DNA of 64,000 nt. Origin: an uncultured Geobacter sp. GTDB taxonomy: Bacteria > Desulfobacterota > Desulfuromonadia > Geobacterales > CAIOGM01. The position numbers and the translations under genes are program-made. The notes under the pieces were generated by a model. That model ran no database searches. It saw only the letters and a list, made by a program, of their open reading frames with translations, and had not been told where the DNA came from. The stretch lies in NCBI GenBank assembly GCA_903902855.1, contig CAIUWK010000095.1, positions 5,887 through 69,886 on the forward strand, given 5' to 3'. Of this stretch, positions 491 through 20,424 are shown piece by piece; positions within the stretch are counted from its first letter, which is position 1, and each line of letters begins with the position of its first letter.

Positions 491-736
491 CGTGTATGCA
501 GTTGTCTGTTGTTATGCAATCTAACGTGATGATACTAAATTGAAGATGAGGCACTTGTCAAGGAGTATTATGGCAGGTATTGCAGTAACTATTTTTTGTG
601 AACCTGCCAAATTTGTGTGGTTCTTGGATGGTAGGAGGCCTATTTTCTACGGCAGGCAGTAATCTCAATGAGCAAACACAATCATCATTAGTCTTCCAAG
701 CATGCACCTGTAGAGTAGGGAGTTGATTAACAGAAA

Positions 737-768
737 AAGAACGACGGGCAGAATGCCCCGTCGTTCTT
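737..768 (-). terminator. Rho-independent terminator after cassette A
   Basis: A 12-bp perfect stem (737-748 paired with 757-768) is followed on the minus strand by a U-run (RC of cagaaaaa, 731-738). It lies about 30 nt downstream of the stop at 800. Confidence 0.7.
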
Positions 769-799
769 CAGTGACGGCACAACAGGCGAGCGCCTGCTG

Positions 800-3241
800 C
801 TACCTGAGCGGGAAATTGATATAAATCACATGGTTTCCGCCAACGTCGTCATATTCGAGCTTCCATTTGAGCTGGTAATCTTTCACAACATTACGCCGGT
901 CAATACGGAATGAGAAAGTGTCACTCGAGGTTTTGACGGCACCACCTGCAATAGAACCGAAACTTGCCACGCCATCCACTGGAGTGACCGTCGCCGGCCA
1001 CGAGTCCAATGTCATCTTTACGTTGTTGGCCGGTGTGTTGCCCCGGTTGCGCATGTCAAACTTGTAGGTGTATTCATAGATAAACGTATTGATCCGTTTT
1101 TCACTGACCTTCACATAGTTCTCGGGCCAGAGGTCGACGACGAAAACCTGGGTATAGGTCTGGGTTGTGGCGGTCAGGCCTTTATTGTCCGTTACCCGGA
1201 GGCCAATCTGACCTGAATACGGGGTCGCCCAGATGTGCTGGACCGTCGAACTCGAACCGCTGCTGGTCTCAAAGGTGCCGTTCCCGTCCAAATCCCACTC
1301 GTACAAAGCAATGGAACCACCGGGATTCGGGGAGAATGAGGCCGATCCGTTGAAGGTGATGGGTGACCCGATCACGCCGTTATACGGACCGCCCGCATTG
1401 GCGACCGGCGCTACCCAAGTAGTGCTGATGGTGACCGGAACGACTACTTCTCCGATTTCCTGGGGTGACGAGTTATCGCCCACCGTTAATTTTGCGTTGA
1501 CGGTATAATCTGCTGGTGGACTTTTTTCCAGGTATCCGGCATAGGAGATCGGCCCGGAAACGGGGAAGTTGCCACTCAGTATGGTGGTGCCGTCACCCTT
1601 CACATCGATCCAATACTTGGTCAAACTCTTCGCGGGATCCTGATGATAGGAGCCGCTGATATCGAATTTGACCGGCTTGAGTGCCGGAGTGGGGTTGGGG
1701 CTGACCGTCATGACGGCGATGGGACGGAAGGTGAAGACGTTCCTCGTCAGTATCTCGACCGCCCAAGCCGTGTCAAACGTATAATAATACGTCAGATAAA
1801 ATGAACCATCACCATTCTGTATTGATAGAAGATAGGTGCTGTATTCATCGTACCAGTCCCAGCCGCCAAGCAACTGGATCTCCGAATAGGTGTCACCGAT
1901 TCCGTCTCCGTTCGTGTCGACCTTCGCAATGCGGGCTCCTTTGGCTACGGCATACATTGAGTACATGTTGCCGGTTCCATGCTCCTGTGTGCCTAGATAG
2001 TTGCCTGCGGCAACGATGCGATCAAATGTTTTGACCTTTCCTTCGAACGACATCTGGCAGATTCCGGAAGCGGTGAGCGCTGCACCCGTTCCCAGCCCCG
2101 TATACCCGAGAGCCCCATAGTACCATTGACCCTCATAGCCGGTGAAGTACTGGCTGTAATTGATCCAGTTAAAGTTATCAGTCTTGATTTTCGGGTGAAT
2201 GGCCACGCCCCAGCCGAACTCTGCCGCTTCCATCCCGATCGAGGGCCATTGACAGGCGGAGTTATCAGGCCAATTCTGAGGGCCGTAACGCCAGCCGCCT
2301 AAACCAGGGTACTGCGCATAGTCAGCGTAATCAACCATGTCTTCAACCAGCTTCCGGTAGGTCTTGCCGATCACGCCTGTTGGTCCCGTGGTCGCAACGA
2401 GTTCGGGCGCACCGCTTAATTTGTCACCGGCGCCCACCAGCGCCATCATGTACATGCCGATCTTGTAGGGCCCGCGGTAATCATACATGGGATAGTAATT
2501 GTCCGCCACATACTCACCATTACCATTGCTGTCATACTGGGGATCAACTCCGACAGCCATAAGTGTCGATATTGCGTAATCGAGACCACGGTGAACGGTA
2601 TCGGCGTAGATTCGTCCTTTCTCCCATATCGCCCTGTCGGCCGCATTAACGACGCCGTCGCCGTTCTGATCCTTCGTAACCGGCTTATGGCCTCTGTTCT
2701 CGAAGGCCAGGACTGCGGCTGCTGTCTCCGCCCCGGCTGAAGAATAATAATTCCAGTAATATATTGAACCATCCGAGTATTGAGAGAGATAAAGATATTT
2801 CAGTCCTCTTTCGATGGCAAGCTGTATCCTGGCATCCTTGTCCACGACAGGTTTCACGTAGATACGGACCGTGGCGCTGTTCAGCAGGCCGTTGCCGTCT
2901 GTCACGGTCAGGGTTGCGTCATAGACGCCGGCGGCTGTGTAGGCATAGTTGACCGAGATGTTTCTGGCATCGGTCACTGTGCCGTTGACCACGGGGGACC
3001 CATCACCGAAGTTCCAGGAATAGGTGCCAGTTGTGGAATCTCCCCACTTCACGTTGCCCCAGACATCAAGGGAGTTACCAACCCAGGTGTAGGCGCTCTG
3101 CGCGGTGTCTCCGCTCGGCATGACATTGACACTTGGACCGTTGGCGAAAATAGCAAGAGCAATCGATGACCATCCCATCAGACATAACAGCCACAGGACA
3201 AAAACCGATCTGAGGCTCCATCTTTGTACCCAGTATTTCAT
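800..3241 (-). CDS. Secreted multidomain protein: signal peptide, PKD domain, alpha/alpha-toroid (prenyltransferase/squalene-cyclase-repeat-like) domain, Ig-like/PKD domains, C-terminal beta-sandwich (copy A)
   Basis: The ORF spans 800-3295. The start is chosen at MKYWVQRW (3241) because it has a GGAG SD. The protein has a hydrophobic signal sequence and PKD motifs WNFGDGS and YEWDLDGNG. The central region has repeated QxxDGS/GGW-type motifs (QYSDGSIYYW, LGGWRYG, QNGDGSFY) and a DxNGDGVVNAAD calcium-loop-like motif. It is a paralogue of 9329-11842. Confidence 0.7.
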   Translation of the reverse strand: MKYWVQRWSLRSVFVLWLLCLMGWSSIALAIFANGPSVNVMPSGDTAQSAYTWVGNSLDVWGNVKWGDSTTGTYSWNFGDGSPVVNGTVTDARNISVNYAYTAAGVYDATLTVTDGNGLLNSATVRIYVKPVVDKDARIQLAIERGLKYLYLSQYSDGSIYYWNYYSSAGAETAAAVLAFENRGHKPVTKDQNGDGVVNAADRAIWEKGRIYADTVHRGLDYAISTLMAVGVDPQYDSNGNGEYVADNYYPMYDYRGPYKIGMYMMALVGAGDKLSGAPELVATTGPTGVIGKTYRKLVEDMVDYADYAQYPGLGGWRYGPQNWPDNSACQWPSIGMEAAEFGWGVAIHPKIKTDNFNWINYSQYFTGYEGQWYYGALGYTGLGTGAALTASGICQMSFEGKVKTFDRIVAAGNYLGTQEHGTGNMYSMYAVAKGARIAKVDTNGDGIGDTYSEIQLLGGWDWYDEYSTYLLSIQNGDGSFYLTYYYTFDTAWAVEILTRNVFTFRPIAVMTVSPNPTPALKPVKFDISGSYHQDPAKSLTKYWIDVKGDGTTILSGNFPVSGPISYAGYLEKSPPADYTVNAKLTVGDNSSPQEIGEVVVPVTISTTWVAPVANAGGPYNGVIGSPITFNGSASFSPNPGGSIALYEWDLDGNGTFETSSGSSSTVQHIWATPYSGQIGLRVTDNKGLTATTQTYTQVFVVDLWPENYVKVSEKRINTFIYEYTYKFDMRNRGNTPANNVKMTLDSWPATVTPVDGVASFGSIAGGAVKTSSDTFSFRIDRRNVVKDYQLKWKLEYDDVGGNHVIYINFPLR

Positions 3242-3324
3242 GACTATCTCCTTATGGGTAATGCAGTTAGATGCCGACACGAAATCGACTCGCATCCGTG
3301 TGCCACGCTAAACCTACGGATCTA

Positions 3325-3909
3325 TTATCCCATTTTACGCCTGATGAAAATTAAACCACCAAGACCGGCCCCCAGCAGTAGGAACGTGGACGGCTCCGGC
3401 ACGGAGGAGCCTCCCTGCAATTCGGTATAGCCCGTATCAGTGGTGCTGTAATCGCCGGTCGCTTGATTGATGGTGCCGACCTGATAATAGAGGTGGTCAA
3501 AGGTTCCCCCCGGTTGCATGGTAAATGATGTAGTGAAGCCGCCGAAGCTGCCACCGGAGACAATACCGCTGCCGATCGCATCGGAGTTGTAGATCCCGGG
3601 GTTGTCGATGGCCGACGGCTCAAAGGAGTAGGAGAACCATCCTGAGGGTAAACTGACGCCATTGGAATCGGGGATAAAATTCGAGAACGACTCTGTTTGT
3701 GTAAAATTCAGACCGTCACTCGTCTGGCCGAAGTAGATCGATAGCCACTGGATCGGGTCAGTCAGTGTGTCGTTCTGTACCGTGAAGTTTAGCGTGTACG
3801 CAGGGGGCATGGAACCGGCAACCGAATACCGCAGATGTGTTGCCGAAGCCGTGGTAGCCATCCCCACCAAAATCATACCTGCCAGCATTATTATCATGAA
3901 CTTTTTCAT
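3325..3909 (-). CDS. PEP-CTERM sorting-domain protein (copy A)
   Basis: The C-terminus is VPEPSTFLLLGAGLGGLIFIRRKMG (PEP motif, TM helix, basic tail). The N-terminal signal MKKFMIIMLAGMILVGMATTASA follows a GGGGGTGAGAGG SD. A sigma-54 promoter lies upstream. Confidence 0.85.
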   Translation of the reverse strand: MKKFMIIMLAGMILVGMATTASATHLRYSVAGSMPPAYTLNFTVQNDTLTDPIQWLSIYFGQTSDGLNFTQTESFSNFIPDSNGVSLPSGWFSYSFEPSAIDNPGIYNSDAIGSGIVSGGSFGGFTTSFTMQPGGTFDHLYYQVGTINQATGDYSTTDTGYTELQGGSSVPEPSTFLLLGAGLGGLIFIRRKMG

Positions 3910-3998
3910 CCTCTCACCCCCTTGTAGCACTCGTAGAGTTCGTTTTCCTAACATTGCCGAATCCTCCCTTCATGAAGATTAATGTGCACAAACACACC

Positions 3999-4014
3999 TG
4001 CAACATATGTGCCG
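3999..4014 (-). promoter_or_regulatory. Sigma-54 (-24/-12) promoter of PEP-CTERM gene A
   Basis: The minus-strand read is cGGCAC-atatg-TTGCA. This has the GG-N10-GC spacing of the TGGCAC-N5-TTGCW consensus. It sits about 90 nt upstream of the start at 3909. Confidence 0.6.
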
Positions 4015-4161
4015 TTTAATTTGCTCGCATCTAATCTACAGCCGACTGCGGCAGCTCCCCGCTGAAGTAAGAAACCATCCTTCTTGAGGGTACTTCACTA
4101 CGGCTTGCATCCCGGTGACTGATAAAAATGACGACGTTGTGCTCTTCTCGGGCATGAGCGA

Positions 4162-4211
4162 GTGTCGACTTTCTTTACACTTCTTCCCAGTGACTGTCGA
4201 AATTCTTTACA
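4162..4211 (-). promoter_or_regulatory. Tandem direct-repeat candidate enhancer (UAS) for the sigma-54 promoter, copy A
   Basis: GTGTCGACTTTCTTTACA (4162-4179) and CTGTCGAAATTCTTTACA (4194-4211) are 32 bp apart start to start. They lie about 150-210 bp upstream of the -24/-12 element. The same pair is present in copy B. Confidence 0.4.
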
Positions 4212-4515
4212 ATAAATCTCCCCGAATTAATTGCTGGACTGCTAGGATCAAAACACACCCGCAGGCGCCGGCAACCAGCCAAACAGGTGAGATCTGAACA
4301 GCCATGACGGCTCCATCCAGGAGAGAAATCCCGGCAAGCATGAGCAGCACGAGGGGCACGGCATAGGGTGTGCCCCTCGTGTTTTCATGACGCGCCACAG
4401 CGTAACAACACACGGCCCAAAGGGATCGGGCGGGAAGGACGTTTCAGACGATCTATTCCTGCATCGCAGATATCGTTAAGACACATGCCGCCAGAATAAT
4501 TGAGCGAAAGAGACA
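4207..4515 (-). pseudogene. eboC: eboC (UbiA prenyltransferase) relic with N-terminus and central ~280 bp deleted
   Basis: 4207-4400 aligns to the 3' end of 12910-13100 (VARHENTRGTPYAVPLV...ISPVWL vs VARHENRRSKPYAVPLV...ISPVWL). 4400-4515 aligns to B 13380-13500 (YSGGMCLNDICDAGIDRLKRPSRPIP). No start codon remains. Confidence 0.8.
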
Positions 4516-4693
4516 CATGGGGAAGCCACCGGTCCAGAAGCGTGGTAAGTCTGGTCGTGTAATCTGCCCGTTCTCGCCGCCGCAGCGCGGCAGGAGCAAA
4601 TGCAGATTTGATGGAAGGAAGATGATCCCGAAGGGGGGCAAAGGTTGCATCCCAGCTTTCACCTGGATGTATGTTGGTGCAGGAGGTGATTAC
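4516..4693 (-). pseudogene. eboE: eboE relic (N-terminal fragments only); eboF entirely deleted at the eboC/eboE junction
   Basis: 4516-4570 aligns to B about 15730-15785. 4570-4693 aligns to B about 15960-16081 (ITSCTNIHPGESW). The start-codon position reads GTA instead of GTG. About 2.2 kb (the rest of eboE, all of eboF, and the eboC N-terminus) is missing relative to copy B. Confidence 0.75.
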
Positions 4694-5128
4694 ACGGCAC
4701 TGAATTTGGAATACTGACCGAAGAAGGTCGCCGGATTGTCATAAATAACCTTCCGGATCAGCTCGATTCCGTATCGTTCGAGGATGTCGACGGTCCGGGC
4801 AGGGCTGCATTTGAAGTTCCGGTAGAGGGTCACCCCGGCCCGGAAGCCCCGCGCCAGATCTCCCCGATGGTATGCTCTTCGGCATGGTCGATGAGAACCC
4901 GTTCCGCTCTGCAGCCAGGGCGATCTGCAACTCCAGCACCGTGACCTCGTTCCGTCTGTTCTTGTTGATGACGATCTCTCCCACCCCCAACACCGTGGGA
5001 CGGTCCAAGTAGTCGGGCATGATTGCCAGTACTTCCCGTGCCAGGGCAAGGTCTTTGGCCTGCTTGGGGTTCTGGCAGATCCAGCAGTAATGCCGGATGC
5101 CGAACTTTGCGGCCTAGGCCGGCTCCCC
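4690..5128 (-). pseudogene. eboB: eboB (TatD-family hydrolase) relic with several internal deletions, frameshifts and an in-frame stop
   Basis: Pieces in different frames match 16078-16881: GVTLYRNFKCSPARTVDILERYGIE, LDRPTVLGVGEIVINKNRRNEVTVLELQIALAAER and AKFGIRHYCWICQNPK. Gaps of about 100 and about 110 bp exist relative to B, there is a TAG at about 5115, and the N-terminal metal-binding HxH region is lost. Confidence 0.8.
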
Positions 5129-5232
5129 CACGATGAAAGGAATGCGGCGACCTCCAGAATACGCGCCCGGTTCTCAAGAAACGAGCCTTCCAGTATCTCT
5201 TGTGCCGATAGCTGACTTTTCAGACAGTCCAT
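5129..5232 (-). pseudogene. eboA: eboA-position gene relic (first ~32 codons only, fused to the eboB relic)
   Basis: MDCLKSQLSAQEILEGSFLENRARILEVAAF matches the N-terminus of 16868-17182 and then breaks off. The track ORF 4690-5316 is a chimera of these relics. Confidence 0.7.
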
Positions 5233-6391
5233 GACTCTCTCCTCTTCTGCTCTCCTTGGCAGCCAGGGTTGAGATGCACTCCTGATACACGTCAACATCA
5301 ATCTCATGAACCTCAATCCTCTTCCCGACCCCCTTCAAGAGCGGTATGGAGAGGACTCCCCCCAGATGCTCCCGGAACTCCTGGAGCGCCCGGGCTATGT
5401 CGATCCACCGAAGTGCCGTGTCATAGAGGGTGAAGCCCACCTCTTCCAGCAGCGTCAGTATCCGGTGCAGATCCAGGTCACTTATCAGCGACCGCCGGTG
5501 GGAGTAGAGGGAGTCGAGGGCAATCCCGATGGCTACGGCCTCACCATGCCTGAGCTCGCCATGGGTCAACTCTTCCAGCTTGTGGGCCGTCCAGTGACCG
5601 AAGTCCAACGGCCGTGACGTCCCGAATTCGAAGGGGTCGCCGCAGCTGCGGATATGCTCCAGATGAAGTTCGGCACAGCTGACGATCAACCGCTCCATGG
5701 CCGGTGGAGAAAAAACCGACAGTTCCCGGCGCTGGGCATAGAGGCGCTGGAAAAAAGGGCGATCCTTGATCAGGGCAACCTTGATCGCCTCGGCAATACC
5801 GGCCCGCTGGTCGCGTTCCGTAAGGGTTCGGAGAAAATCAAAGTCATTGATTACGGCGCAAGGGGGGGCAAAAGTCCCGAGAAAATTCTTCCGGCCAAAA
5901 GCGTTAACGCCGTTCTTGACCCCAACGCCGGCGTCATTCTGGGCCAACACCGTAGTCGGCAACCGGATCAGCCGAATGCCGCGATGGGCGGTGGCAGCCG
6001 CATACCCGACCACATCCAGCACTGCCCCACCTCCCATGGCAATGATAAAGGAATGACGGCAGAGCCCCTCCTTCTCCACCAGAGCGTGAAGCCGCTCGAC
6101 TTCCTGTGGCTTATTCTTGCACCCTTCGCCCCCCGGTAAAACCAGGGGGTGAGTGACGAATTCAAGGAGCCCCTGATGCAACGAGGCAAACCGTTTGATT
6201 TTTTCCAAGAGTCCAGTCGTCAGCCGCGCCACCTCCGAATCGATGACCAAGGCGATCCTCACAGGTCTCTCGCCGTAGGAGGAGAGAAGCTCAGGCAGGA
6301 CCGGGTTCCCTTCGCCGAACAGATCACGGGTGAAGAAGACCGGATATGAATAAGAAAGCGTGAATTCCTGCCGGATGCTCTCCATGATCAC
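5174..6391 (-). CDS. eboD: 3-dehydroquinate-synthase-family sugar-phosphate cyclase, EboD-type (copy A, intact)
   Basis: This 405-aa ORF carries DHQS-family motifs (GGGAVLDVVGYAAATAHRGIRLIRLPTT, NDAGVGVKNG, HWTAHKLE, HGEAVAIG). It is collinear with 17124-18335 at high identity (about 85% by eye). Confidence 0.8.
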   Translation of the reverse strand: MIMESIRQEFTLSYSYPVFFTRDLFGEGNPVLPELLSSYGERPVRIALVIDSEVARLTTGLLEKIKRFASLHQGLLEFVTHPLVLPGGEGCKNKPQEVERLHALVEKEGLCRHSFIIAMGGGAVLDVVGYAAATAHRGIRLIRLPTTVLAQNDAGVGVKNGVNAFGRKNFLGTFAPPCAVINDFDFLRTLTERDQRAGIAEAIKVALIKDRPFFQRLYAQRRELSVFSPPAMERLIVSCAELHLEHIRSCGDPFEFGTSRPLDFGHWTAHKLEELTHGELRHGEAVAIGIALDSLYSHRRSLISDLDLHRILTLLEEVGFTLYDTALRWIDIARALQEFREHLGGVLSIPLLKGVGKRIEVHEIDVDVYQECISTLAAKESRRGESHGLSEKSAIGTRDTGRLVS

Positions 6392-6394
6392 CCC

Positions 6395-7573
6395 CTATAA
6401 GCCCCGGGAGATGATCTCCAGGGTGATGACCGCGTACGCGGTGACGAGCCCAGGATCCTTCTCCCACCAGCGGCCGTTGGCATTGGCCCAGAAGCCATCG
6501 CCGTTCTGCAGGTCGATCAGCTTCTTTGCCAGATCCCTGCGCCAGTTGACGCTCTTCCCACTCTTGAGGGTCAGGTTGTCCACCCCGTAGACGCTGAGGG
6601 CCTTGGCCATGGTGTGGTAGTAATAGTAGAGGCCGTCTTTTCCCATGCCGGGATTTTCGTCAAGGGTATAGTGCCGACGTAGCCAGTCGTAGACCGCCTT
6701 GACCCGGGGATCGTTCCTATCGAGTTGGGCGTAGATGTAGCTCAGCAGTCCGGCATAGCTCATGCTGCCGTATGATCTGAGGGCCACCTTGCCATCAGGA
6801 AGTTTCACCTCGCCCGCCTTGCTCTCATCCGGGAAATAGACGAAGCCACCCTTGTTGTCAGGATCGTCGCTGGCCCACTTCTGATCATTGGAACCGGGGA
6901 GGTTCTGGGTCCGGGAGAGAAACTGGACTGCGGCCTTCCAGTTGAGATCCTTCGCCTCGGCGTCACCGGCAACATCACTTTTGAGGTAGCGGCTGTAATG
7001 GAGCGCTTCCAGGGCGAAGGTCGTATTGGCCAGATCCGAATGTTTGTAGGTACCGCCGTAGCCGATGCCGCCGTCCAGGGGATCGTCTCCCATCCCTTTT
7101 TCCCCGAAATCGTCCTGCAGGCCGATGATATATTTTCGTGCATTCTTGATGACCGGCTGGTATTCCGGCCGGTTGGCCATCAGGAGGGCCATCATGGAGA
7201 TGGAAGTATTATAGTTGGTCAGCTCCTTGCCGTAGATACCTCCGTCAGGTTTGACGTTTGTGAGGAGGTAACCGTATCCTTTGGTTATAGCCTGCTCGTA
7301 TTTCCTCTTATAGAAACCCGACTGGTCCCCCTGGAACCCGGTGAGAACCAGAGCGGTGAGGGCCGGGTACTCCTGCTGTCCCCAGTACCCCTCCGGCTTC
7401 TGCCTTGCAGCCAGCCAAGTCAGCCCCTTGCCGATGGCGTTCTCCACCTCCAGCTTAAGGGAAACGTCGGATTTGGAGCGAGCAACGACCTTCTCCGCGG
7501 CAATAGCCTGGGTCGAGAGTGCCAGCCCCATGACTACCGCGCAGAAAATTTTCCGATTCAGTGACAATTTCAT
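6395..7573 (-). CDS. Secreted prenyltransferase/squalene-cyclase-repeat (alpha/alpha toroid) protein (copy A)
   Basis: The start is at MKLSLN (7573) with a GGAGGA SD, and the signal peptide ends AIA-AE. Toroid-type repeats are present (QKPEGYWG, VKPDGGIYG, DPLDGGIGYGG, NKGGFVYF, QNGDGFWANANGRWWE). It is a paralogue of 18345-19526. Confidence 0.7.
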   Translation of the reverse strand: MKLSLNRKIFCAVVMGLALSTQAIAAEKVVARSKSDVSLKLEVENAIGKGLTWLAARQKPEGYWGQQEYPALTALVLTGFQGDQSGFYKRKYEQAITKGYGYLLTNVKPDGGIYGKELTNYNTSISMMALLMANRPEYQPVIKNARKYIIGLQDDFGEKGMGDDPLDGGIGYGGTYKHSDLANTTFALEALHYSRYLKSDVAGDAEAKDLNWKAAVQFLSRTQNLPGSNDQKWASDDPDNKGGFVYFPDESKAGEVKLPDGKVALRSYGSMSYAGLLSYIYAQLDRNDPRVKAVYDWLRRHYTLDENPGMGKDGLYYYYHTMAKALSVYGVDNLTLKSGKSVNWRRDLAKKLIDLQNGDGFWANANGRWWEKDPGLVTAYAVITLEIISRGL

Positions 7574-7590
7574 GGTTCCTCCACGCAAAG

Positions 7591-8364
7591 TTAATGTTTA
7601 GGTAGTATCGTAACGGTAACCGCACTCCCCACCGGCGGCACGGTGTCTTCCTTAACGAACCATATCTTGTCGCTCTCTCCACCGGCGGAGGCATTGTCAA
7701 TCAAAGCTATCGGATCGTGATAAAGTGCGATTATTGATCCTTCCATCTGCGCCAGGAACTTGCCGTTCCCGACAACGGAGCCCGTATAGATCCACGAGAG
7801 AGTGGATATCTCACACGTCTTTTTATCAATTTTTTTGCAGATCCAGCGTTCATAGTCGTCCGCAGCGGCCTTGCCGTCGGCGCCGACACGGGTGACAAGA
7901 ATCCTTACCGAGTCACCTTTGGGCGTAGAGGGGTCTCCCTGATAGGCAAGAGGCTTGTCGGTCCCTTCATACCCCAGGAGCAGAAAGGCTACCTGAAGCG
8001 GGTAGGGCTCCACGGTGGTGCGCAGGAGACTCTCATGGGTCTTTCCAGCGTTTCGTACCAGGAGATACTCCAGGAGTCCCTTCCCCATATTGACCACGGC
8101 AGGGAATGAAATCGATCGTTCCATTTTGTTGATCAGGATATCTCCTATCCGGAATACGCCCGGAGAGACCTTTTCTATTGCCGGTGGCTGTTGTGCCATG
8201 AATGGCGGTGGGGGGAGCAACGGGCGAGGTGGTGGCGCATTCTTCAAACCAGGTGGGAGTGGATTCTGTACCGCGGGAGGGGCTTCAGCCGTAGCGTTGG
8301 TTGCAACAACCGAGCAGGCGAGCATCAGATACAATCCGATTCGTGTGATACTGCTTCGCTTCAT
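7591..8364 (-). CDS. Secreted protein of unknown function with Pro-rich linker (copy A); possibly YdjY-domain-like (unverified recollection)
   Basis: The protein has a signal peptide, a PPPRPLLPPPPF linker and a conserved core (VSPGVFRIGD...LLEYLLV...GKTHESLLRT...IALYHDP...DKIWF). It is a paralogue of 19544-20323. Its stop is 18 nt before the downstream start. Confidence 0.6.
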   Translation of the reverse strand: MKRSSITRIGLYLMLACSVVATNATAEAPPAVQNPLPPGLKNAPPPRPLLPPPPFMAQQPPAIEKVSPGVFRIGDILINKMERSISFPAVVNMGKGLLEYLLVRNAGKTHESLLRTTVEPYPLQVAFLLLGYEGTDKPLAYQGDPSTPKGDSVRILVTRVGADGKAAADDYERWICKKIDKKTCEISTLSWIYTGSVVGNGKFLAQMEGSIIALYHDPIALIDNASAGGESDKIWFVKEDTVPPVGSAVTVTILPKH

Positions 8365-8456
8365 GAGGTTATGCCTCCTTTCATCTATCCATACCCGCCG
8401 GAACTATCCGCTGTAAAGGAATACGGTTCAACCGGGGCGACGTTACCCTCTACCAC

Positions 8457-9032
8457 CTAGAACGAGTACGTATATACCAGCTCAAAACCGCACGTGCGAT
8501 CATCCACGAATTTCTCGAAGTACTTCACCCCGACTTCGTGCTGTTTACTGATCTTGTATGCTGCACCGAATTTCCAGGTATTTGTATTGTAATTGTTGTT
8601 ACGGTCAAAGGCGTCACGATGCCTCATGCTGACGTTCAGATCAAAGGTGTTGTCAACGACTGTCCAGACCAGTCCCGGTTCGATGGTGTAGTAGGGACAG
8701 TTCTTTTGTTGGGTAAATTTCTCGCCGATGCCCAAGCGGAGGGTCCCCTTGACCGGTCCGAACAGTTTCTGATCATAACGGACACGCGCTTCCAGCTTTG
8801 TTTCCATATCCTTGGTCAGGGAGTCCTGCTCTCCCTCAAACTTCAAGTCAACCTTGAAGCCGTTATCGAATTTATAGCCGGGGGCAATCGAAAAGGCATT
8901 TATCGAATCATGAGGCTGATTCTTGTTGTTCTCATACTCATACTCGAACGTCATAAACCCACCTGCTCCAAAGGCAGGCACACTGCTCAACAGACACAAG
9001 ACCGTAACTAAAATTTTTCCAAAATTCCTCAT
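8457..9032 (-). CDS. Small outer-membrane beta-barrel protein (present only in copy A)
   Basis: The start is at MRNFGK (9032) after an AAGGAGGA SD. The protein has a signal peptide, alternating amphipathic beta-strand pattern, and the C-terminal YTYSF with terminal Phe typical of OM barrels. Confidence 0.6.
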   Translation of the reverse strand: MRNFGKILVTVLCLLSSVPAFGAGGFMTFEYEYENNKNQPHDSINAFSIAPGYKFDNGFKVDLKFEGEQDSLTKDMETKLEARVRYDQKLFGPVKGTLRLGIGEKFTQQKNCPYYTIEPGLVWTVVDNTFDLNVSMRHRDAFDRNNNYNTNTWKFGAAYKISKQHEVGVKYFEKFVDDRTCGFELVYTYSF

Positions 9033-9135
9033 ACATTCCTCCTTTTCCACATATAGTTCGGATAGTTACCCTGTTATCGCTCCACCTTTTGGCCGATGAC
9101 TCCCTTTTATATTAATAAAAATTTTAATGTAGACA

Positions 9136-9165
9136 TTAATATCACATGAGAGATGCACGTGTCAA
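9136..9165 (-). promoter_or_regulatory. Candidate sigma-70 promoter for cassette A
   Basis: The minus-strand read is TTGACA (9165-9160), an 18-nt spacer, then TATTAA (9141-9136). It lies in an AT-rich gap about 105 nt upstream of 9032 and just downstream of the copy-B terminator. Confidence 0.35.
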
Positions 9166-9262
9166 GCAGTTCTAATATGATATGGAGTGGGGGGGGTAAT
9201 TGATGGCGGAATATTATCAATCTGGAAATTGAACTTTCGTGTTCTTTAAAAAAGGCAAACAT

Positions 9263-9299
9263 AAAAGAACGGCGGGGCAATGAGCCCCGCCGTTCTTTT
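9263..9299 (-). terminator. Strong (bidirectional-looking) Rho-independent terminator after cassette B
   Basis: A 16-bp perfect stem, AAAAGAACGGCGGGGC (9263-9278) paired with GCCCCGCCGTTCTTTT (9284-9299), encloses a 5-nt loop. T-runs occur on both strands. It lies 30 nt downstream of the stop at 9329. Confidence 0.8.
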
Positions 9300-9328
9300 A
9301 TTGCGTTAAAAAATGCGAGTGACTGCTG

Positions 9329-11842
9329 CTACCTGATCGGGAAGTCTACGTATGACACATGAGTCCCGCCCGCGTCATCATATTCGAGTTTCCATCTGAT
9401 CTGTAAATCACTCACAGGATAGCGCCGGTCGATTTGGTATGAGAAGGTATCGATGGACGTCTTGACCGAAACGCTTGGTATGGAACCGAAGTTGACATTG
9501 CCGTCCACCACGCGGACCGGTGCCGGCCAGGACGACAGGGTTGATTTCACGTTATTTGCCGGAGCGTTCCCCCTGTTGCGCATATCGAATTTGTAGGTGT
9601 ATTCGTAGACGAACGTGCTAACTCGCCGTTCGCTAATTTTTACATAATGCTCGGGCCAGAGGTCTACTACGAAAACCTGAGCATTAGCCTGGGAAGTGGC
9701 GATAAGGCCGTCGTTGTCGGTAACCTTCAGGCCGATGACTCCTTGATACGGGGTCAACCAGGTTTTCTGGACTGTGGGGCTTGAGCCGCTGTTAGTTTCA
9801 TAGGTGCCATTCCCGTCAAGGTCCCACTCATACTTGACGATGGAGCTACCGAGGTTCGGCGAGTAGGAGGCAGAACCGTTGAAGGTAATCGGCGTTCCTA
9901 TCACGCCATTGTACGGACCGCCCGCATTAGCGACCGGCGGCACCTTGGTGGTGGTGATGGTGACCGGAATAATTGTTTCCGCAAATTCCTGAGGTGATGA
10001 GTTGTCGCTCACTCGGAGTTTTGCGTTGATCGTATAGTCTGCCGGAGGCGACTTTTCCGGATATCCGGTATAGACGATCGGGCCGGAAACCGGGAAGCTT
10101 CCGGTCAGATCATAGACGCCATCCCCGTCCACATCGATCCACCATTTGGAGAGAGACTTGGTGGGATCCTGATGGTAAGAGGCACGGATGTCGAAATTAA
10201 CCGGCGCAGGATGGAGCGCCGTGCTCGCCGGTGTGGGGTTGGGGGAGGCAGTCATTATGGCGACGGGGCGCAAGGTGAAGACGTTCCTGGTCAGGATCTC
10301 GACACTAAACGAGGTGTCAAGAACATACTGAGTGTAGCCCCAAGCGTACCATGAGCCATCAGCAGCCTGGTTGTCGATGAGCCAACTGCTGTATTCGTCG
10401 TACCAATCCCAGCCTGGAGCTGATCCCAGGAGTTGAATTTCCGAGTAGACGCCGCCAAGTTTAGCGATGCGGGCACCCTTCGTTATCGAATACATGTAGT
10501 ACGTATTACCGGTGCCGCGTTCGCCGGGTACGAGTCGGAGAAAGTTGCCTGCCCTTGTAATATTCGGATCATTTTTTTGTTTGCCCTGAAATGAAAGCTG
10601 GCATATCCCGGCTCCGGTCAAGGCGGCATAGCCGCCGGTCCCTGTACATGAAGGACAGGTGTAGCCAAAGAGGCCATCATAAACATCACCGGAAACATAT
10701 TGGCTGTAATTGGTCCAGTTGATGTTGTCGTTCTTGATTTTCGCCCGGATCGGGACTCCCCAGATGAACTCCGCAGCCTCCATGCCGATGGCGGGCCACT
10801 GGCAGGCGGAGTTATCCGGGAAATAGCCGGGGCCATACCGCCAACCACCATAATTGGGGTCGGTGTACTGGGCATAGTCGGCATAGTCGACCATGTCCCC
10901 GACGAGATCGCGGTAGGTTCTGCCGATCACACCGGCAGGCCCGGTGGTGGCAATCAGGTTAGGGGCACCTTCGGGGTTGGGCGTAATACCATCCGGTTTT
11001 AAGGCTGGAGCATTCTCACCCGCGCCGACCAAGGCAGTCATAAACATCCCTATTTTGTAGGGTGAACGGGAATCAGACCAGTACGGTGAGTAGCTGTCGA
11101 CAACCATGAGGCCGTTCGGCACAGCCGGATGATTGTCATAGGCAGGAGAGGTAACACTGACGGCTACGAGGTTTGAAATGGCGGCATCAAGCCCCTTGTG
11201 TACTGTCTCGGCATAGATGCGCCCTTTCTCCCAGATGGCCCGGTCGGCCGCATCAACGACGCCATCGCCGTTCAGATCCTTGGTGCAGGGCTTGTGACCC
11301 CGGTTTTCGAAGGCGAGGACTGCTGAAGCAGTCTCGGCGCCCCAGGAGTTGTAGCTGTTGACATAATAGATTTCGCCACCGGCGCCCTGCCGGAGATAGA
11401 GCCATTTCAGCCCTTTCTCGATGGCCAGTTCGATCCGGGCATCCTTGTCAACGACAGTTTTTACGTAAATATGGACCGTGGCGCTGTCCGAAAGACCGTT
11501 GCCGTCAGTCACGGTCAGGGTTGCATCGACGGGGCCCCCAGCCGAGTAGGTGTGATATGCAGAGATGTATTTGGCGTTGGTAACCGCTCCGGAGACCACG
11601 GGGGTCCCATCGCCAAAGTTCCAGATGTACGTACCTGACGCGGAGTCTCCCCACTTCACATTACCCCAGACGTCAAGCGAGTTCCCCACCCAGGTATAGG
11701 AACTCTGAACAGTGTTCCCGCTCGGCATGACATTTATGCTTGGACCGGTCAGCGCAAAAGCAGTCGAACTCCAGCCCATCATGCACAACATCCACAGGGC
11801 AAGAAGAGCCCTGATGCCCCAACTTTGTTTCCGGTAGTTCAT
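9329..11842 (-). CDS. Secreted multidomain PKD / alpha-alpha-toroid / PKD protein (copy B)
   Basis: This 837-aa ORF has an AAGGAGG SD and a signal peptide. It carries WNFGDGT and YEWDLDGNG PKD motifs and central toroid-like repeats (YGGWRYG, NQAADGSWY). It is collinear with 800-3241. Confidence 0.7.
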   Translation of the reverse strand: MNYRKQSWGIRALLALWMLCMMGWSSTAFALTGPSINVMPSGNTVQSSYTWVGNSLDVWGNVKWGDSASGTYIWNFGDGTPVVSGAVTNAKYISAYHTYSAGGPVDATLTVTDGNGLSDSATVHIYVKTVVDKDARIELAIEKGLKWLYLRQGAGGEIYYVNSYNSWGAETASAVLAFENRGHKPCTKDLNGDGVVDAADRAIWEKGRIYAETVHKGLDAAISNLVAVSVTSPAYDNHPAVPNGLMVVDSYSPYWSDSRSPYKIGMFMTALVGAGENAPALKPDGITPNPEGAPNLIATTGPAGVIGRTYRDLVGDMVDYADYAQYTDPNYGGWRYGPGYFPDNSACQWPAIGMEAAEFIWGVPIRAKIKNDNINWTNYSQYVSGDVYDGLFGYTCPSCTGTGGYAALTGAGICQLSFQGKQKNDPNITRAGNFLRLVPGERGTGNTYYMYSITKGARIAKLGGVYSEIQLLGSAPGWDWYDEYSSWLIDNQAADGSWYAWGYTQYVLDTSFSVEILTRNVFTLRPVAIMTASPNPTPASTALHPAPVNFDIRASYHQDPTKSLSKWWIDVDGDGVYDLTGSFPVSGPIVYTGYPEKSPPADYTINAKLRVSDNSSPQEFAETIIPVTITTTKVPPVANAGGPYNGVIGTPITFNGSASYSPNLGSSIVKYEWDLDGNGTYETNSGSSPTVQKTWLTPYQGVIGLKVTDNDGLIATSQANAQVFVVDLWPEHYVKISERRVSTFVYEYTYKFDMRNRGNAPANNVKSTLSSWPAPVRVVDGNVNFGSIPSVSVKTSIDTFSYQIDRRYPVSDLQIRWKLEYDDAGGTHVSYVDFPIR

Positions 11843-11925
11843 GGTGACCTCCTTATGGTATCTGATAATACGTGAGGCTAAAGAAAACCGACTAGACCCT
11901 CACGGTCTCCCGTTCGAGTTCGCTG

Positions 11926-12507
11926 TCAGCTTTTTTTCCTTTTTAAGAAGGCAAGGCCGGCGAGACCACCTCCCAGCAGCAGGATCGTGGAGGGCTCGGG
12001 AACGCCTGAAGGCTGCGAATATTGCGTGTACCCGCTGTCAAGGAGATTATACCCTCCCGCTTGGTCGAAGTTGCCCACAAGGTAGTAGAGATGATCTAAG
12101 GTTGCGCCTTGCTGCATGTCGAATGATACCGTAAAACCGCTGAGGCTGCTCCCGGGGGCAACGCCACTGCCGGCGGCATCGGAGTTAAAAATACCAGGAT
12201 TATCGATGGCGCTTGGCTGGAAGGAATAGGAAAACCACCCCACGGGACTGTTGACGCCCACATCGTCAGGAACAAAATTGGAAAATTCCGCGGTTTGCGT
12301 AAAGTTTAGACCGTCCACCGTCTGTCCGAAATAGACCGACAGCCACTGGATCGGATCCGCCAGGGTGTCATTCTCGATGGTGTAGTTGATCGTATACCCA
12401 GTCCCTGAGCCCGAAGGGTTTTGGTACTTCACTACTGTTGCCGATACTGTCGATACCATCCCCACAAGGAGACTACCTGCCAGCAATGCTAAGATTAATT
12501 TTTTCAT
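11926..12507 (-). CDS. PEP-CTERM sorting-domain protein (copy B)
   Basis: The C-terminus is VPEPSTILLLGGGLAGLAFLKRKKS. The start is at MKKLILALL (12507) after an AGGAGGTGAGAGG SD. A sigma-54 promoter lies upstream. Confidence 0.85.
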   Translation of the reverse strand: MKKLILALLAGSLLVGMVSTVSATVVKYQNPSGSGTGYTINYTIENDTLADPIQWLSVYFGQTVDGLNFTQTAEFSNFVPDDVGVNSPVGWFSYSFQPSAIDNPGIFNSDAAGSGVAPGSSLSGFTVSFDMQQGATLDHLYYLVGNFDQAGGYNLLDSGYTQYSQPSGVPEPSTILLLGGGLAGLAFLKRKKS

Positions 12508-12599
12508 CCTCTCACCTCCTAGTTGTGATCTTCGCACTCGCTTCGAAACGGCGGCGAGTATCCATTAATGCCTAAATTTTACTGATAGCGAAACGTAAA

Positions 12600-12615
12600 T
12601 GCAATACATATGCCA
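12600..12615 (-). promoter_or_regulatory. Sigma-54 (-24/-12) promoter of PEP-CTERM gene B
   Basis: The minus-strand read is TGGCAT-atgta-TTGCA, a near-perfect match to TGGCAC-N5-TTGCW. It sits about 93 nt upstream of the start at 12507. Confidence 0.65.
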
Positions 12616-12774
12616 GTTAATGCGCTTGAGTCGGCAGAAGGATCAATAACAATAAACCAATACCCGACCTCTCCCAACACAAGTAAAAAGGCGTTCTACA
12701 AAGAGAAAAGGTGTATCCGTATCCGGAGTATCAGAGGAGTAAACTTACAGGCAACTTTCCGGCGGCACTGGCGT

Positions 12775-12824
12775 GTGTCGGCTTTCTTTACACCTTACGG
12801 TGACTAGTGTCGGATTTCTTTACA
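12775..12824 (-). promoter_or_regulatory. Tandem direct-repeat candidate enhancer (UAS), copy B
   Basis: GTGTCGGCTTTCTTTACA (12775-12792) and GTGTCGGATTTCTTTACA (12807-12824) match at 17 of 18 positions and are 32 bp apart. They lie about 160-210 bp upstream of the sigma-54 element. Confidence 0.45.
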
Positions 12825-12909
12825 GTAGCGTTCACATGCAGAGGAGAAGAAGGAGGAGATGCTGTGGTAACAGTCGGCAGGGTACGGAGACCACCGTGGA
12901 GGAACGCGC

Positions 12910-13638
12910 TCAATCTCCCCGGACAAAGCGCTGACCAGCCAGGGTCAGAACGGCACCGCCGATCCCGGCCGCCAACCAGACGGGAGAGATCAGAGCGGCC
13001 ATGACGACGCCGTCCAGCAGAGAGATCCCGGCCAGAAGTATCGGCACCAGAGGCACCGCGTAGGGCTTGCTCCTCCTGTTTTCATGCCGCGCCACCGCGC
13101 TGATCAGGAGGACATAGCCGAACTGGAGGCATCCGGCGAGTATGACGGAGCTGCCGACCGTTCCGGATACCGCCACCGCCACGACCACGAAGACGGTCAT
13201 CCGGCAGCCGGCCATGAGCAGGATACTGAAATATCGGGACTGATGCAGGGTATCATAGGCGATGATGAGCAGGAGCAGTATCACGCCCGCCAGGAGCGCC
13301 AAGGGGTGAGGAACAACGACAAGTAGGGAGAGGGCCGTCGAAAACAGCACAATTGTAAAAACCCGGGCACCACGGGTCGACACCCGCCCTGAAGGGATAG
13401 GGCGTGAGGGACGCTTCAACCGGTCGACTCCGGCGTCGCAAAGGTCATTGAAGCACATTCCACCGGAGTAGAAGAGCGACAGCGAGAGCGCAAGGACAAC
13501 ATAGTGCCGCCAGGAAAATCCTCCCCCGGCAAGAAGGAGCGCCGCAAGGACGTTGGTCCAGACCGTCGGGAGGTTGCTGACCCGACAGAGCTCCAGGTAT
13601 GACTTGATGAGGGTGCGGGGCACTTGGTTCACTCGCAA
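12910..13638 (-). CDS. eboC: UbiA-family prenyltransferase, EboC-type
   Basis: The protein is polytopic and hydrophobic, with UbiA motifs (LELCRVSNLPTVWTNVL, NDLCDAGVDRLKRPSRPIPSGR). The start is TTG at 13638 or GTG at 13632, overlapping the eboF stop. Confidence 0.75.
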   Translation of the reverse strand: MRVNQVPRTLIKSYLELCRVSNLPTVWTNVLAALLLAGGGFSWRHYVVLALSLSLFYSGGMCFNDLCDAGVDRLKRPSRPIPSGRVSTRGARVFTIVLFSTALSLLVVVPHPLALLAGVILLLLIIAYDTLHQSRYFSILLMAGCRMTVFVVVAVAVSGTVGSSVILAGCLQFGYVLLISAVARHENRRSKPYAVPLVPILLAGISLLDGVVMAALISPVWLAAGIGGAVLTLAGQRFVRGD

Positions 13639-14996
13639 AAGATATGCTTCAGCAGCAGGTCACGAACCTGCTCTGCCTCGATGAGGGGAGCTTCAAGGAG
13701 TTCCGGTTCGGTGGTCATGAAAAGCGGCCCCTCGTCGGCTCGATCGGTGACCCGTCCGTGAGACCCCTTGACGAGGGAGGCGTCCAAGGGAATCACCTCC
13801 ATGAGGTAGCGAAAGCCGAGGGCTTTTTTCAGCAGGGTCCAGGCGATCTTCGCCTTGGGCGCCGGAAGCTTCGGATCCAGAAATAGTTCACAGGGATCGT
13901 ACCCCGGTTTGGCGTGGATGTTGACAGTACGGGCGTAATCCGGCGCCCGCGAGTCGTCGTTCCAGAAGTAGTAGGTAAACCAGCTCTCCCCACCGGCAAT
14001 GAGCAGCAGTTCCCCGCTTCGCTCATGGTCGAGACCGTACCTGCGCTTCCCCTCCGCGCCCAGTACCTGTTCTACTCCCGGCACTCCGGAAAAAAGATGT
14101 TGCACCGCCGGAATATCGTTTCGATTTTTCACATAGATGTGGGCGATCTGGTGGTCGGCCACGGCAAAGGCACGGCTGGTTCCAGGGTCCAGGTATTCCC
14201 GCCCCAGATCGACCTTGAGGCTAAGGAATCCGGCATCGCGCAGAATCCTGTTCGGATGGAGCGGGCGCGAAACCGGGGTAATGCCGTATTCGGAGAGGAC
14301 GATGACCCGACAACCGCGATTCCGGAAAAAGTCGATGAGTTTGCCGCAAAGGGTGTCGATCTCACTCAGGTCGCGGTCAAGATCCCCCTCCGGCCCGACC
14401 TTCTGGAGGATGTAATCCAGATGGGGAAGGTAGACAAGCTGGAGGGTTGGTTGATGCTCCTCCTCTATGGCCATGGCCGCCTTACCGATCCAGTCGCTGG
14501 CGGTGATGGAGGTGGCCGGTCCCCAGAACTGGAAGAGCGGAAACTGCCCGAACTCCCGGTTGAACCTCTCCCTCAGTTCCGGAGGGATACTGTAGCAGTC
14601 CGGCAGTTTCTTCCCGTCAGCGCAATAGAGCGGGCGGGGAGTCACCGCCCACTCCAGATCCGTTACCATGTTGTACCACCAGAAGGAGTTGGCGCAGGTA
14701 AACGCTGCGTCCCGCTGCCGCGCACTCTGCCAGATTTTTTCCGACTGGACGAGCCGGTTTGACTGGCGCCAGAACATGACCTCACCCAGATCCCGGAAAT
14801 ACCAGCCGTTACCGACGATGCCATGTTCCCTCGGCAGCTTGCCGGTGAGATAGGTCGTCTGCATGGTGCAGGTCACGGCCGGCGTGATGGCCCTGATATC
14901 GGCGCTCCCCTCAATAAGTTTATTCAGGTTGGGGGTCTTGGCGCCGAGGAGTGAGCGGGTCAGCCCCACCACGTTAAGGACAACAGTTCGTTTCAT
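13629..14996 (-). CDS. eboF: Alkaline-phosphatase-superfamily nucleotide pyrophosphatase/phosphodiesterase, EboF-type
   Basis: This 455-aa protein begins MKRTVVLNVVGLT...ITPAVTCTMQTTYLTGKLPREHGIVGNGW, the type I phosphodiesterase N-terminal catalytic-Thr region. Its start overlaps the eboE stop by 4 nt. Confidence 0.7.
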   Translation of the reverse strand: MKRTVVLNVVGLTRSLLGAKTPNLNKLIEGSADIRAITPAVTCTMQTTYLTGKLPREHGIVGNGWYFRDLGEVMFWRQSNRLVQSEKIWQSARQRDAAFTCANSFWWYNMVTDLEWAVTPRPLYCADGKKLPDCYSIPPELRERFNREFGQFPLFQFWGPATSITASDWIGKAAMAIEEEHQPTLQLVYLPHLDYILQKVGPEGDLDRDLSEIDTLCGKLIDFFRNRGCRVIVLSEYGITPVSRPLHPNRILRDAGFLSLKVDLGREYLDPGTSRAFAVADHQIAHIYVKNRNDIPAVQHLFSGVPGVEQVLGAEGKRRYGLDHERSGELLLIAGGESWFTYYFWNDDSRAPDYARTVNIHAKPGYDPCELFLDPKLPAPKAKIAWTLLKKALGFRYLMEVIPLDASLVKGSHGRVTDRADEGPLFMTTEPELLEAPLIEAEQVRDLLLKHIFCE

Positions 14997-16881: not shown

Positions 16882-17182
16882 GAGTCACCTCCTGCCATGC
16901 TCCCACCGCGCTTTTCATCCCGGCGGAGCTTGGTATCGGCTCCGTGGTCGGGTCGCTCAAGCGATGGAGGATAGCTCCGGTCCGATTTCCGGATGGTGCC
17001 AGGAGACAACCGACAGCGTGCAGCACTGCCTGATAACGGAAATCTTTCCGTGCTTCGGCAGCATCATCGGCCCGCTCGATCCGGTCAAGAAACGCGGCGA
17101 TTTCGAGGATTCTCGCTCGATTCTCAAGAAACGTGCTTTCGAGGATCTCCTGTGCGGATAACGGACTTTTCAGAATGCTCAT
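16868..17182 (-). CDS. eboA: Small conserved protein in the eboA position (putative EboA)
   Basis: This 104-aa ORF is wedged between eboD and eboB, with a 59-nt overlap with eboD and a 14-nt overlap with eboB. Its N-terminus is conserved in the copy-A relic. The family assignment rests on position only. Confidence 0.45.
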   Translation of the reverse strand: MSILKSPLSAQEILESTFLENRARILEIAAFLDRIERADDAAEARKDFRYQAVLHAVGCLLAPSGNRTGAILHRLSDPTTEPIPSSAGMKSAVGAWQEVTREDH

Positions 17183-18335: not shown

Positions 18336-18344
18336 GTCAGCCGC

Positions 18345-19526: not shown

Positions 19527-19543
19527 AGGTTCTCCTTCTCGAT

Positions 19544-20323: not shown

Positions 20324-20424
20324 GGTTTCCTCCTGGAATGCCGGTTACCGCGGTCCATTATCGTCTGTATCTCTCCGCAGGTTCGGGAAAAGATAGCAAG
20401 TTTCAATAAGGGATACAATGTTTT

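Follow-up and report, generated by a model that had tools for sequence, protein, structure and literature searches.

The 64,000-nucleotide (nt) stretch of DNA analysed here (the window; contig CAIUWK010000095.1, positions 5,887 to 69,886, from an uncultured Geobacter sp.) contains two ebo gene clusters in tandem on the minus strand. The ebo operon, eboA-F, is found in bacteria and in eustigmatophyte plastids (PMC5133447). It has been tied to the export of a scytonemin precursor (PMC6282210) and, in a 2026 preprint, to thallusin biosynthesis (10.64898/2026.05.21.724671). Copy B is complete, and copy A has kept its ydjY, alpha-toroid, eboD, PEP-CTERM and PKD genes (Table 1). The two units lie side by side and point the same way; by blastn, 735–8189 is collinear with 9263–20142. 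The interval from eboD to the PEP-CTERM gene is about 1 kb in copy A versus 4.27 kb in copy B. It holds a segment of 1018 nt on the minus strand, 4215–5232, which is a collinear mosaic of pieces of 'eboA', eboB, eboE and eboC. This segment is very probably a dead remnant of a second ebo core that was cut down by deletions, and is called the relic below.

Structure of the relic and its deletions

The relic was compared with copy B by blastn (3500–6000 against 9000–21000), by blastx against the copy-B proteins and by gap-tolerant global alignment, and with two relatives, L069 and L001, by tblastx. The blastn, blastx and global alignments gave one concordant picture. blastn matched 4215–4402 to 12912–13099 (74%, E 6e-29), 4408–4513 to 13380–13485 (71%, E 8e-9), 4521–4543 to 15732–15754, 4605–4764 to 15993–16152 (76%, E 3e-27), 4753–4909 to 16240–16397 (83%, E 2e-41), 4904–5125 to 16492–16713 (83%, E 1e-62), and 5137 onward to 17087 onward (79%). 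blastx recovered residues 51–89 (YSGGMC..RPSRPIP) and 181–242 of eboC, and residues 49–120 and 169–189 of the eboE open reading frame (ORF). In eboB it recovered residues 55–131 with an in-frame TAG (frame -3), 155–179 (frame -2) and 182–266 with a gap of 33 amino acids (aa) (frame -1). What is left amounts to four pieces of eboB, in three frames, and two pieces each of eboE and eboC. The pieces also align to other species: the region of eboE fragment 1 gives a 180-nt ungapped alignment to L068 3063–3242 (78%) and aligns to L001 as well, eboC fragment 1 is 72–74% identical to L069, L001, L065 and L002, and eboC fragment 2 is matched in the same four. Homology to working genes and broken frames, the marks of a pseudogene, occur together here, with three frames, one stop, one 1-nt frameshift and six large gaps.

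A preliminary description, made from the letters alone, had reported collinear similarity of 4207–5232 to the copy-B ebo genes, and this was confirmed by blastn and blastx with E values down to 1e-62. All the gene pieces that it listed were recovered by blastx against the copy-B proteins. Its statement that eboF is entirely gone also stands, as no eboF sequence was found in the relic by blastn, blastx or global alignment against copy B. Its five collinear fragments are correct as a count of gene groups but not as alignment blocks, of which there are nine.

The 208-aa ORF at 4690–5316 runs through another frame of the eboD 3' end, 'eboA' codons 1–32, about 90 codons of out-of-frame eboB and the in-frame eboB C-terminus. 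It has no Pfam or NCBIfam match, and a search of 5.8 billion proteins gave no homologue beyond its own 90% cluster. This ORF is an orphan chimera and not a gene, as had been proposed.

Table 1. Coordinates of the two clusters, the relic pieces, the deletions and the flanking elements in the window
Feature	Position	Strand	Remarks
Copy A	735–8364	minus	ydjY, toroid, eboD, relic, PEP-CTERM, PKD
ydjY_A	7591–8364	minus	YdjY domain (Pfam); retained
Alpha-alpha-toroid gene A	6395–7588	minus	squalene-hopene-cyclase-like (Pfam); retained
eboD_A	5174–6385	minus	Pfam DHQ_synthase + DHQS_C; stop is right limit of relic
Chimeric ORF, 208 aa	4690–5316	minus	frame analysis
'eboA'-like codons 1–32	5137–5232	minus	blastx, 81% identity to copy-B residues 1–32
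eboB fragment 1, codons ~53–131	4912–5136	minus	frame -3; 80% aa, 83–84% nt vs copy B and L068
eboB fragment 2, codons ~165–181	4857–4911	minus	frame -2; 100-nt gap before, 1-nt gap after, in 4/4 references
eboB fragment 3, codons 181–213 + 247–267 + stop	4690–4856	minus	frame -1; two parts joined by d3
eboE fragment 1, codons ~1–36 of 362-aa gene	4585–4693	minus	blastx match
eboE fragment 2, codons ~96–116	4520–4584	minus	blastx, eboE ORF 169–189, 76%
eboC fragment 1, codons 51–89	4400–4516	minus	includes Asp-rich UbiA motif; 79% aa vs eboC_B
eboC fragment 2, codons 181–242 to stop position	4215–4398	minus	71% aa, 74% nt vs eboC_B
d1, 363 nt	junction 5137/5138		after 'eboA' piece; size from L068
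d2, 100 nt	junction 4911/4912		after eboB fragment 1
1-nt deletion (frameshift)	4856/4857		after eboB fragment 2
d3, 99 nt	junction 4764/4765		inside eboB fragment 3
d4, 177 nt	junction 4584/4585		after eboE fragment 1
d5, ~2241–2246 nt	~4517–4520		2241 vs L069/L001 (tblastx), 2246 vs copy B
d6, ~276–279 nt	~4399–4405		after eboC fragment 1
Two 17-nt direct repeats, TGTAAAGAWnnYCGACA	4163–4179, 4195–4211	minus	directly 3' of eboC stop; left limit
Sigma-54-like -24/-12 element, GGCAC-N5-TTGCA	3999–4013	minus	45 nt upstream of PEP-CTERM gene A
PEP-CTERM gene A	3325–3954	minus	Pfam; retained
PKD-domain gene A	800–3241	minus	Pfam; retained
Copy B	9263–20323	minus	complete cluster, tandem with copy A
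ydjY_B	19544–20323	minus
Alpha-alpha-toroid gene B	18345–19547	minus	squalene-hopene-cyclase-like
eboD_B	17124–18335	minus
Intact core of copy B	12910–17182	minus	4273 nt; 'eboA'-eboB-eboE-eboF-eboC
'eboA'-position gene B	16868–17182	minus	104 aa
eboB_B	16078–16881	minus
eboE_B	ORF 14993–16297	minus	in relatives, 362-aa gene from ~16081
eboF_B	13629–14996	minus
eboC_B	12910–13638	minus
Copy-B repeats	12776–12792, 12808–12824
Copy-B sigma-54-like element	12600–12614		GGCAY-N5-TTGCA pattern
PEP-CTERM gene B	11926–12537	minus
PKD-domain gene B	9329–11842	minus	837 aa

Compared with the intact core, 76% of the 4.27 kb has been lost, and the deletions sum to about 3255 nt (4273 − 1018). The preliminary description had counted at least six internal deletions, and the alignments gave six that are 99 nt or longer, and a frameshift of 1 nt. 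The gaps fall at the same positions against all six intact references (copy B, L068, L069, L001, L065 and L002), so the deletions happened in the copy-A lineage. The largest one, d5, takes out the remainder of eboE, eboF as a whole and eboC codons 1–50. The loss of about 2.2 kb that had been noted at the eboC/eboE junction agrees with it in size (about 2.24 kb). A candidate seventh deletion, an 84-nt gap 3' of the eboC stop, was rejected because the 84 nt were inserted in copy B; there, only about 10 nt separate L069 and L001 from copy A. This insertion (12828–12911) has the eboC stop of copy B on one side and its repeat pair on the other, is not present in copy A, L069 or L001, and is purine-rich on the plus strand (GAGGAGAAGAAGGAGGA).

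The junction of d3 lies exactly between two 12-nt direct repeats that are 10/12 identical in the intact orthologues (GAGCGGATCTGG and GAGCTGATCCGG in L068, GAGATGATCTGG and GAGTTGATCCGG in copy B), and one repeat is left in the relic. Slipped-strand or microhomology-mediated deletion takes place between short direct repeats and is RecA-independent. Judged from the repeats, d3 carries the signature of such an event and shares with it both the position between repeats and the retention of one of them. Unlike in the typical case, the likeness is clear at one junction only: d2 has a weaker 8/12 repeat, and in the remaining four no repeat can be recognised at today's divergence from the references, a weak negative result. 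At the five junctions other than d3, the mechanism is one that we infer. With copy B as proxy for the ancestor, three junctions seemed to hold 4–11 nt of filler. The 11-nt filler at d1 was rejected, as the closer reference L068 identifies it as homologous eboB sequence.

The sole in-frame stop in the relic, a TAG that had already been noticed in eboB, was found at 5114–5116 in eboB fragment 1. It is polymorphic: TAG is present in the window and in contigs L013–L016, and CAG in L017, L019 and L025. All these contigs share the same six deletions, which are fixed. These results indicate that the deletions preceded the stop codon, and they support the earlier description of the decay as proceeding by deletions rather than by nonsense mutations.

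Selection history and limits of the relic

Over 322 alignable codons, the comparison between the relic and copy B gave a nonsynonymous divergence (dN) of 0.13, a synonymous divergence (dS) of about 1.0 and a ratio (omega) of 0.13, with 50/39/130 differences at the three codon positions. These values are indistinguishable from those of the intact pair eboD_A and eboD_B (dN 0.116, dS 0.91; 80.6% aa identity). Therefore, nearly all of the divergence between copies A and B arose while the relic genes worked.

Changes unique to one lineage were counted at sites where the other sequences agree (for the relic: copy B, L001 and L002). By codon position, the relic had 15/21/23 unique changes versus 11/4/19 in copy B and 18/7/21 in L001 (copy B and L001 together 29/11/40; Fisher p = 0.004). 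Replacements at otherwise invariant residues numbered 30 in the relic versus 7 in copy B (binomial p = 0.0002). A neighbour-joining tree of the concatenated relic was left out because it was distorted by missing data in L068, and codon-position identities were used instead. Third-position identity to L068 was 69.2% for the relic versus 66.1% for copy B, and identity at positions 1 and 2 was 89.3% versus 91.7%; the excess divergence of the relic at positions 1 and 2 is about 3%. The relic has thus passed through long purifying selection and then a short neutral phase with relaxed constraint. As a rough estimate, the neutral phase took one tenth to one sixth of the time that has passed since the closest intact relatives split off.

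The retained copy-A genes behave differently from the relic. eboD_A has 9 unique aa replacements versus 9 in eboD_B, without excess (omega 0.12–0.13), and ydjY_A has no replacement excess either. Omega between the copies is 0.15–0.18 for the PEP-CTERM and PKD genes and 0.07–0.14 for the toroid and ydjY genes, so that all five retained genes fall between 0.07 and 0.18. The ydjY, toroid, eboD, PEP-CTERM and PKD genes of copy A are under purifying selection.

On the right, the limit of the relic is eboD_A, which shares its last 59 nt with the start of the 'eboA'-like gene. On the left, the relic is limited by the repeat pair. The repeat motif has four matches in the window, two per copy, versus 0.01 expected, and it is kept in L069 and L001. 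The sigma-54-like element lies about 150–200 nt beyond the repeat pair and is kept in copies A and B, L069 and L001. Sigma-54 promoters have a GG-N10-GC core and the consensus TGGCAC-N5-TTGCW, and their activator sites are repeated 100–200 nt upstream. From these matches, the element at 3999–4013 can be taken as a putative sigma-54 promoter for the PEP-CTERM and PKD genes, and the repeat pair is probably an upstream activator site. This arrangement suggests that the two genes form a separate transcription unit which depends on an enhancer-binding protein. If the promoter and activator assignments are correct, the relic is the stretch in which deletions were harmless. A generic scan for sigma-70 promoters and terminators gave nothing above the shuffle expectation, and an Rfam search of 3000–13500 gave only sub-threshold matches, all outside the relic.

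The following course would account for these observations. With both clusters in one genome, one set of the cytoplasmic core may have become redundant, which is the cause that we infer for the decay. Selection on the copy-A core would then have lapsed, and six deletions (99 to about 2240 nt) and a 1-nt deletion would have followed, with at least one of them, the 99-nt deletion, apparently taking place between short direct repeats. Erosion would have halted at the eboD_A stop on one side and at the repeat pair and the putative sigma-54 promoter on the other, where the promoter probably drives the downstream PEP-CTERM and PKD genes of copy A.

Alternative explanations and the origin of the two copies

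With a metagenome-type source and two similar clusters side by side, the relic might be thought an assembly artefact, that is, a collapse or chimera of two full clusters. However, the exact eboD_A protein occurs on nine contigs (L013–L020 and L025) from different samples and assemblers, and five of these span the relic and both flanks. Over the relic the contigs are 99.87–100% identical to the window and gap-free, with 99.5% for the JGI contig L025; over all nine, identity is at least 99.49%. The same gap-free sequence across both flanks thus recurs in at least eight samples and with several assemblers (scaffolds, k141 contigs, Logan, JGI). The two copies, at 74–84% identity, are too divergent to collapse, and the relic has its own substitutions throughout. 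Because the structure is repeated in independent contigs, it does not come from assembly collapse. The misassembly that the preliminary description had named as a possible refutation is excluded in this way, and the odds of an artefact are negligible. It is also very unlikely that the 208-aa ORF (or a 180-aa form of it) is a new functional fusion gene. It is called as a gene in some assemblies, and the 'eboA'-like start codon is kept, overlapping the eboD stop as in intact clusters; but about half of the product is out-of-frame eboB translation, it has neither a family match nor a homologue outside its own cluster, and four of the few single-nucleotide polymorphisms of the population fall inside the 0.9-kb relic. 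A further possibility is that all six deletions came from one complex event, such as serial template switching in replication or repair. Such an event would fit the collinearity and shared orientation of the pieces, the joint fixation of the deletions without intermediates in the nine contigs or in relatives, the two junctions with short imperfect direct repeats and the two with 3–7 unmatched bases, and the surplus of large deletions (six) over small indels (one) in the retained DNA. Nothing demands it, however, since neutral DNA in bacteria is known to be lost, as a rule, by one deletion after another. As the contigs represent one near-clonal population, identical at 99.5% or more, the missing intermediates say little, and the neutral phase, with its excess of about 3% at positions 1 and 2, was long enough for several events. 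A single event is improbable.

Concerning the origin of the two clusters, A and B are not each other's closest relatives, as in-paralogues would be, in the eboD and PKD trees or by identity. Copy B is 82–86% identical to single-copy species and copy A 85–88% to others, versus 70–81% between A and B. eboD_A groups with the single-copy intact clusters L001, L069, P0134 and L067, and eboD_B with P0122, P0124–P0126 and P0128–P0131. PKD_B is 82–83% identical to P0004, P0005 and P0007 and 70% to PKD_A, whose closest relative is P0002 (85%). The species of P0005 has one complete cluster between a BatD operon and a Cys/Met-enzyme gene, the same flanks as around the tandem pair in the window, and the A-type species L069 has a single complete cluster between these flanks as well. 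Intact orthologous clusters were found in L001, L002, L065, L068, L069 and the P0005 species. Among the A-type relatives, L067 is the closest (its eboD is 88.5% identical in nt), and its sequence is intact beyond junction d1; L068 (84%) is intact through eboF. The relatives with this ebo variant are annotated as Geobacteraceae and Desulfuromonadaceae. On these comparisons A and B are not recent duplicates, which implies either lateral acquisition or an old duplication. The preliminary description had spoken of a second copy made by duplication: the remnant of a second cluster stands, but the duplication is not established, as A and B each go with single-copy clusters of other species.

Three arrangements at or near these clusters were also observed. 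A porin or outer-membrane-protein (OMP) beta-barrel-like gene of 191–197 aa (8457–9050) lies exactly between copies A and B. It has a counterpart neither beside the clusters of single-copy relatives nor in the rest of the window, and is a possible marker of the integration or duplication junction. In the more distant relative L065 (9370–20001), the order is BatD, PEP-CTERM, PKD, ydjY, toroid, eboD, A, B, E, F, C, a circular permutation such as would come from a tandem pair resolved by loss of the outer halves. In L026 (2101–3950), the cluster ends after eboB. A gene for a PD-(D/E)XK-family transposase follows on the opposite strand, and the 7.5-kb contig lacks eboE, eboF and eboC; here the same cluster was disrupted independently.

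The preferred reading is that copy A was acquired from a related lineage and did not come from a recent duplication, since during nearly the whole of their divergence the two copies were evolving as working genes. In its full form, which is offered only tentatively, copy A would be an orthologous cluster from a sister lineage that was set in tandem beside the resident one; only its redundant cytoplasmic core would have been quickly deleted, and eboD and the exported accessory set (YdjY, alpha-toroid, PEP-CTERM and PKD) would have been kept. A tandem duplication within the lineage, with both copies long kept before one core set decayed, is somewhat doubtful. It would suit the adjacent, collinear units in the same orientation (735–8189 with 9263–20142), the 70% aa identity between PKD_A and PKD_B versus 32–39% of either to the PKD proteins of L001 and L069, and the permuted order in L065, which could come by differential loss from a tandem pair. 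The last two of these points also speak for an old duplication followed by reciprocal losses, a possible but less favoured course. Yet eboD_B and PKD_B are nearer to single-copy species (82–86%) than to copy A (70–81%), and eboD_A goes with other single-copy species. Duplication also needs two redundant five-gene sets to stay under purifying selection through a dS of about 1 and then a recent loss, together with several independent clean losses in relatives that share the flanks, and the omp-like gene at the copy junction is absent from the single-copy relatives. Several points weigh against this account of the relic and its origin. The gene trees are neighbour-joining trees of few sequences, without support values or a species tree, so that a lateral origin and an old duplication are not separable by them. 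PKD_A is only 39% identical to the PKD protein of L069 although eboD_A groups with L069, a discordance that indicates a mosaic history of the cluster. At the four junctions other than d2 and d3 no recognisable microhomology was seen with copy B and L068, 77–84% identical, as proxies for the ancestor. Finally, no relative with a part-deleted copy A was found among genome and metagenome contigs or in three protein searches: at 60–88% identity the genes were intact or the contig was too short to tell (L066, L067). Without an intermediate state, the order and number of the deletion events can only be deduced.

The ebo genes, neighbouring features and implications

The identity of the ebo genes was supported to different degrees by family models. 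EboE (window 14993–16297) matches the EboE equivalog family NF035939, a TIM-barrel family, with 422 bits versus a cut-off of 250. eboD matches Pfam DHQ_synthase and DHQS_C and NCBIfam NF004852 (540 bits versus a cut-off of 333). EboF belongs to the alkaline-phosphatase/phosphodiesterase family (Pfam Phosphodiest, 190 bits). The best NCBIfam match of EboC, NF035940, is below its cut-off (96.7 versus 250 bits), and Pfam UbiA (78.5 bits) is above, as for a UbiA-like prenyltransferase; its length of 237–245 aa is kept across relatives. EboB is a TatD-like hydrolase with a marginal match to TatD_DNase (26.6 bits versus a cut-off of 27), and EboB has been described as marginal to the TatD family and as a cluster of its own within the clan (PMC5133447). 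The 104-aa 'eboA' protein has no Pfam or NCBIfam match at E values up to 10. Its label is by position only, and the gene could be either eboA or eboG. For EboA no family can be detected, and in some operons the unrelated small gene eboG stands in its place (PMC5133447).

As in the described operon (PMC5133447), copy B and the ancestor of the relic have homologues of eboB, eboC, eboD, eboE and eboF in one cluster, with a small, poorly conserved gene at the eboA position. In contrast, the gene order here is D-'A'-B-E-F-C, and the flanks of this clade are YdjY and alpha-toroid genes upstream and PEP-CTERM and PKD genes downstream. EboC here is also short and under the NCBIfam EboC cut-off, and the small gene matches no model. 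In the 2026 preprint (10.64898/2026.05.21.724671), eboB, eboC, eboE and eboF are the conserved core and EboD carries out the committed cyclitol-forming step. In these terms, it is precisely the core that is missing from copy A, and the first-step enzyme is still there.

Some further observations concern the clusters and the rest of the window. The longest eboE ORF (14993–16297) begins 72 codons further upstream, inside eboB but in another frame, and in relatives the gene callers start eboE at the eboB stop (362–368 aa); the conservation of the extension is constraint on eboB and not a real overlap. ydjY_B has 13 lineage-specific replacements versus 4 in ydjY_A, and the two proteins are wholly different over the first ~57 residues, the signal-peptide region. 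L015 (against 16083–16384) and L017 (against 1–436) have about 55–65 differing sites, mostly at every third base, in patches of ~300–430 nt at contig ends; both contigs are otherwise 99.9% identical to the window. Either recombination with another strain left these patches or the contig ends are chimeric. Elsewhere, a yhcG-like ORF (47776–48315, 179 aa) has the DUF1016 N-terminal domain as its only domain and continues into glnE, and a kinase (39291–40538, 415 aa) has the domains PAS-PAS-HisKA_3 with no HATPase_c domain detected. In domain content, both fit the earlier remark on other truncated genes in the window.

Erosion of pseudogenes by deletional bias is well known in bacteria, for example in Rickettsia, Mycobacterium leprae and enteric bacteria. 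The relic follows the same course: a redundant coding region that is unconstrained is lost chiefly through deletions, what remains keeps its collinearity with the intact genes, and erosion ends at functional neighbours. It differs in that five adjacent operon genes shrank together to one 0.9-kb mosaic between intact flanking genes, and in that large deletions (99–2240 nt) dominate while the only nonsense mutation came later. In general, the relic is a sound but ordinary case of textbook deletional erosion of a redundant region.

For annotation, these results mean that no gene should be annotated at the 208-aa ORF and that the organism has one working ebo core set, not two. The ebo variant of this clade, with its YdjY, alpha-toroid, PEP-CTERM and PKD partners, may merit attention, although the relic adds little there. 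The locus is a clean natural example of redundancy resolved inside a gene cluster, with deletions first and point mutations later. Of secondary interest is the selective retention of eboD, which encodes the first-step enzyme, and of the exported accessory genes. If copy A was indeed taken up from a sister lineage, one core pathway would serve two divergent exported or periplasmic modules.

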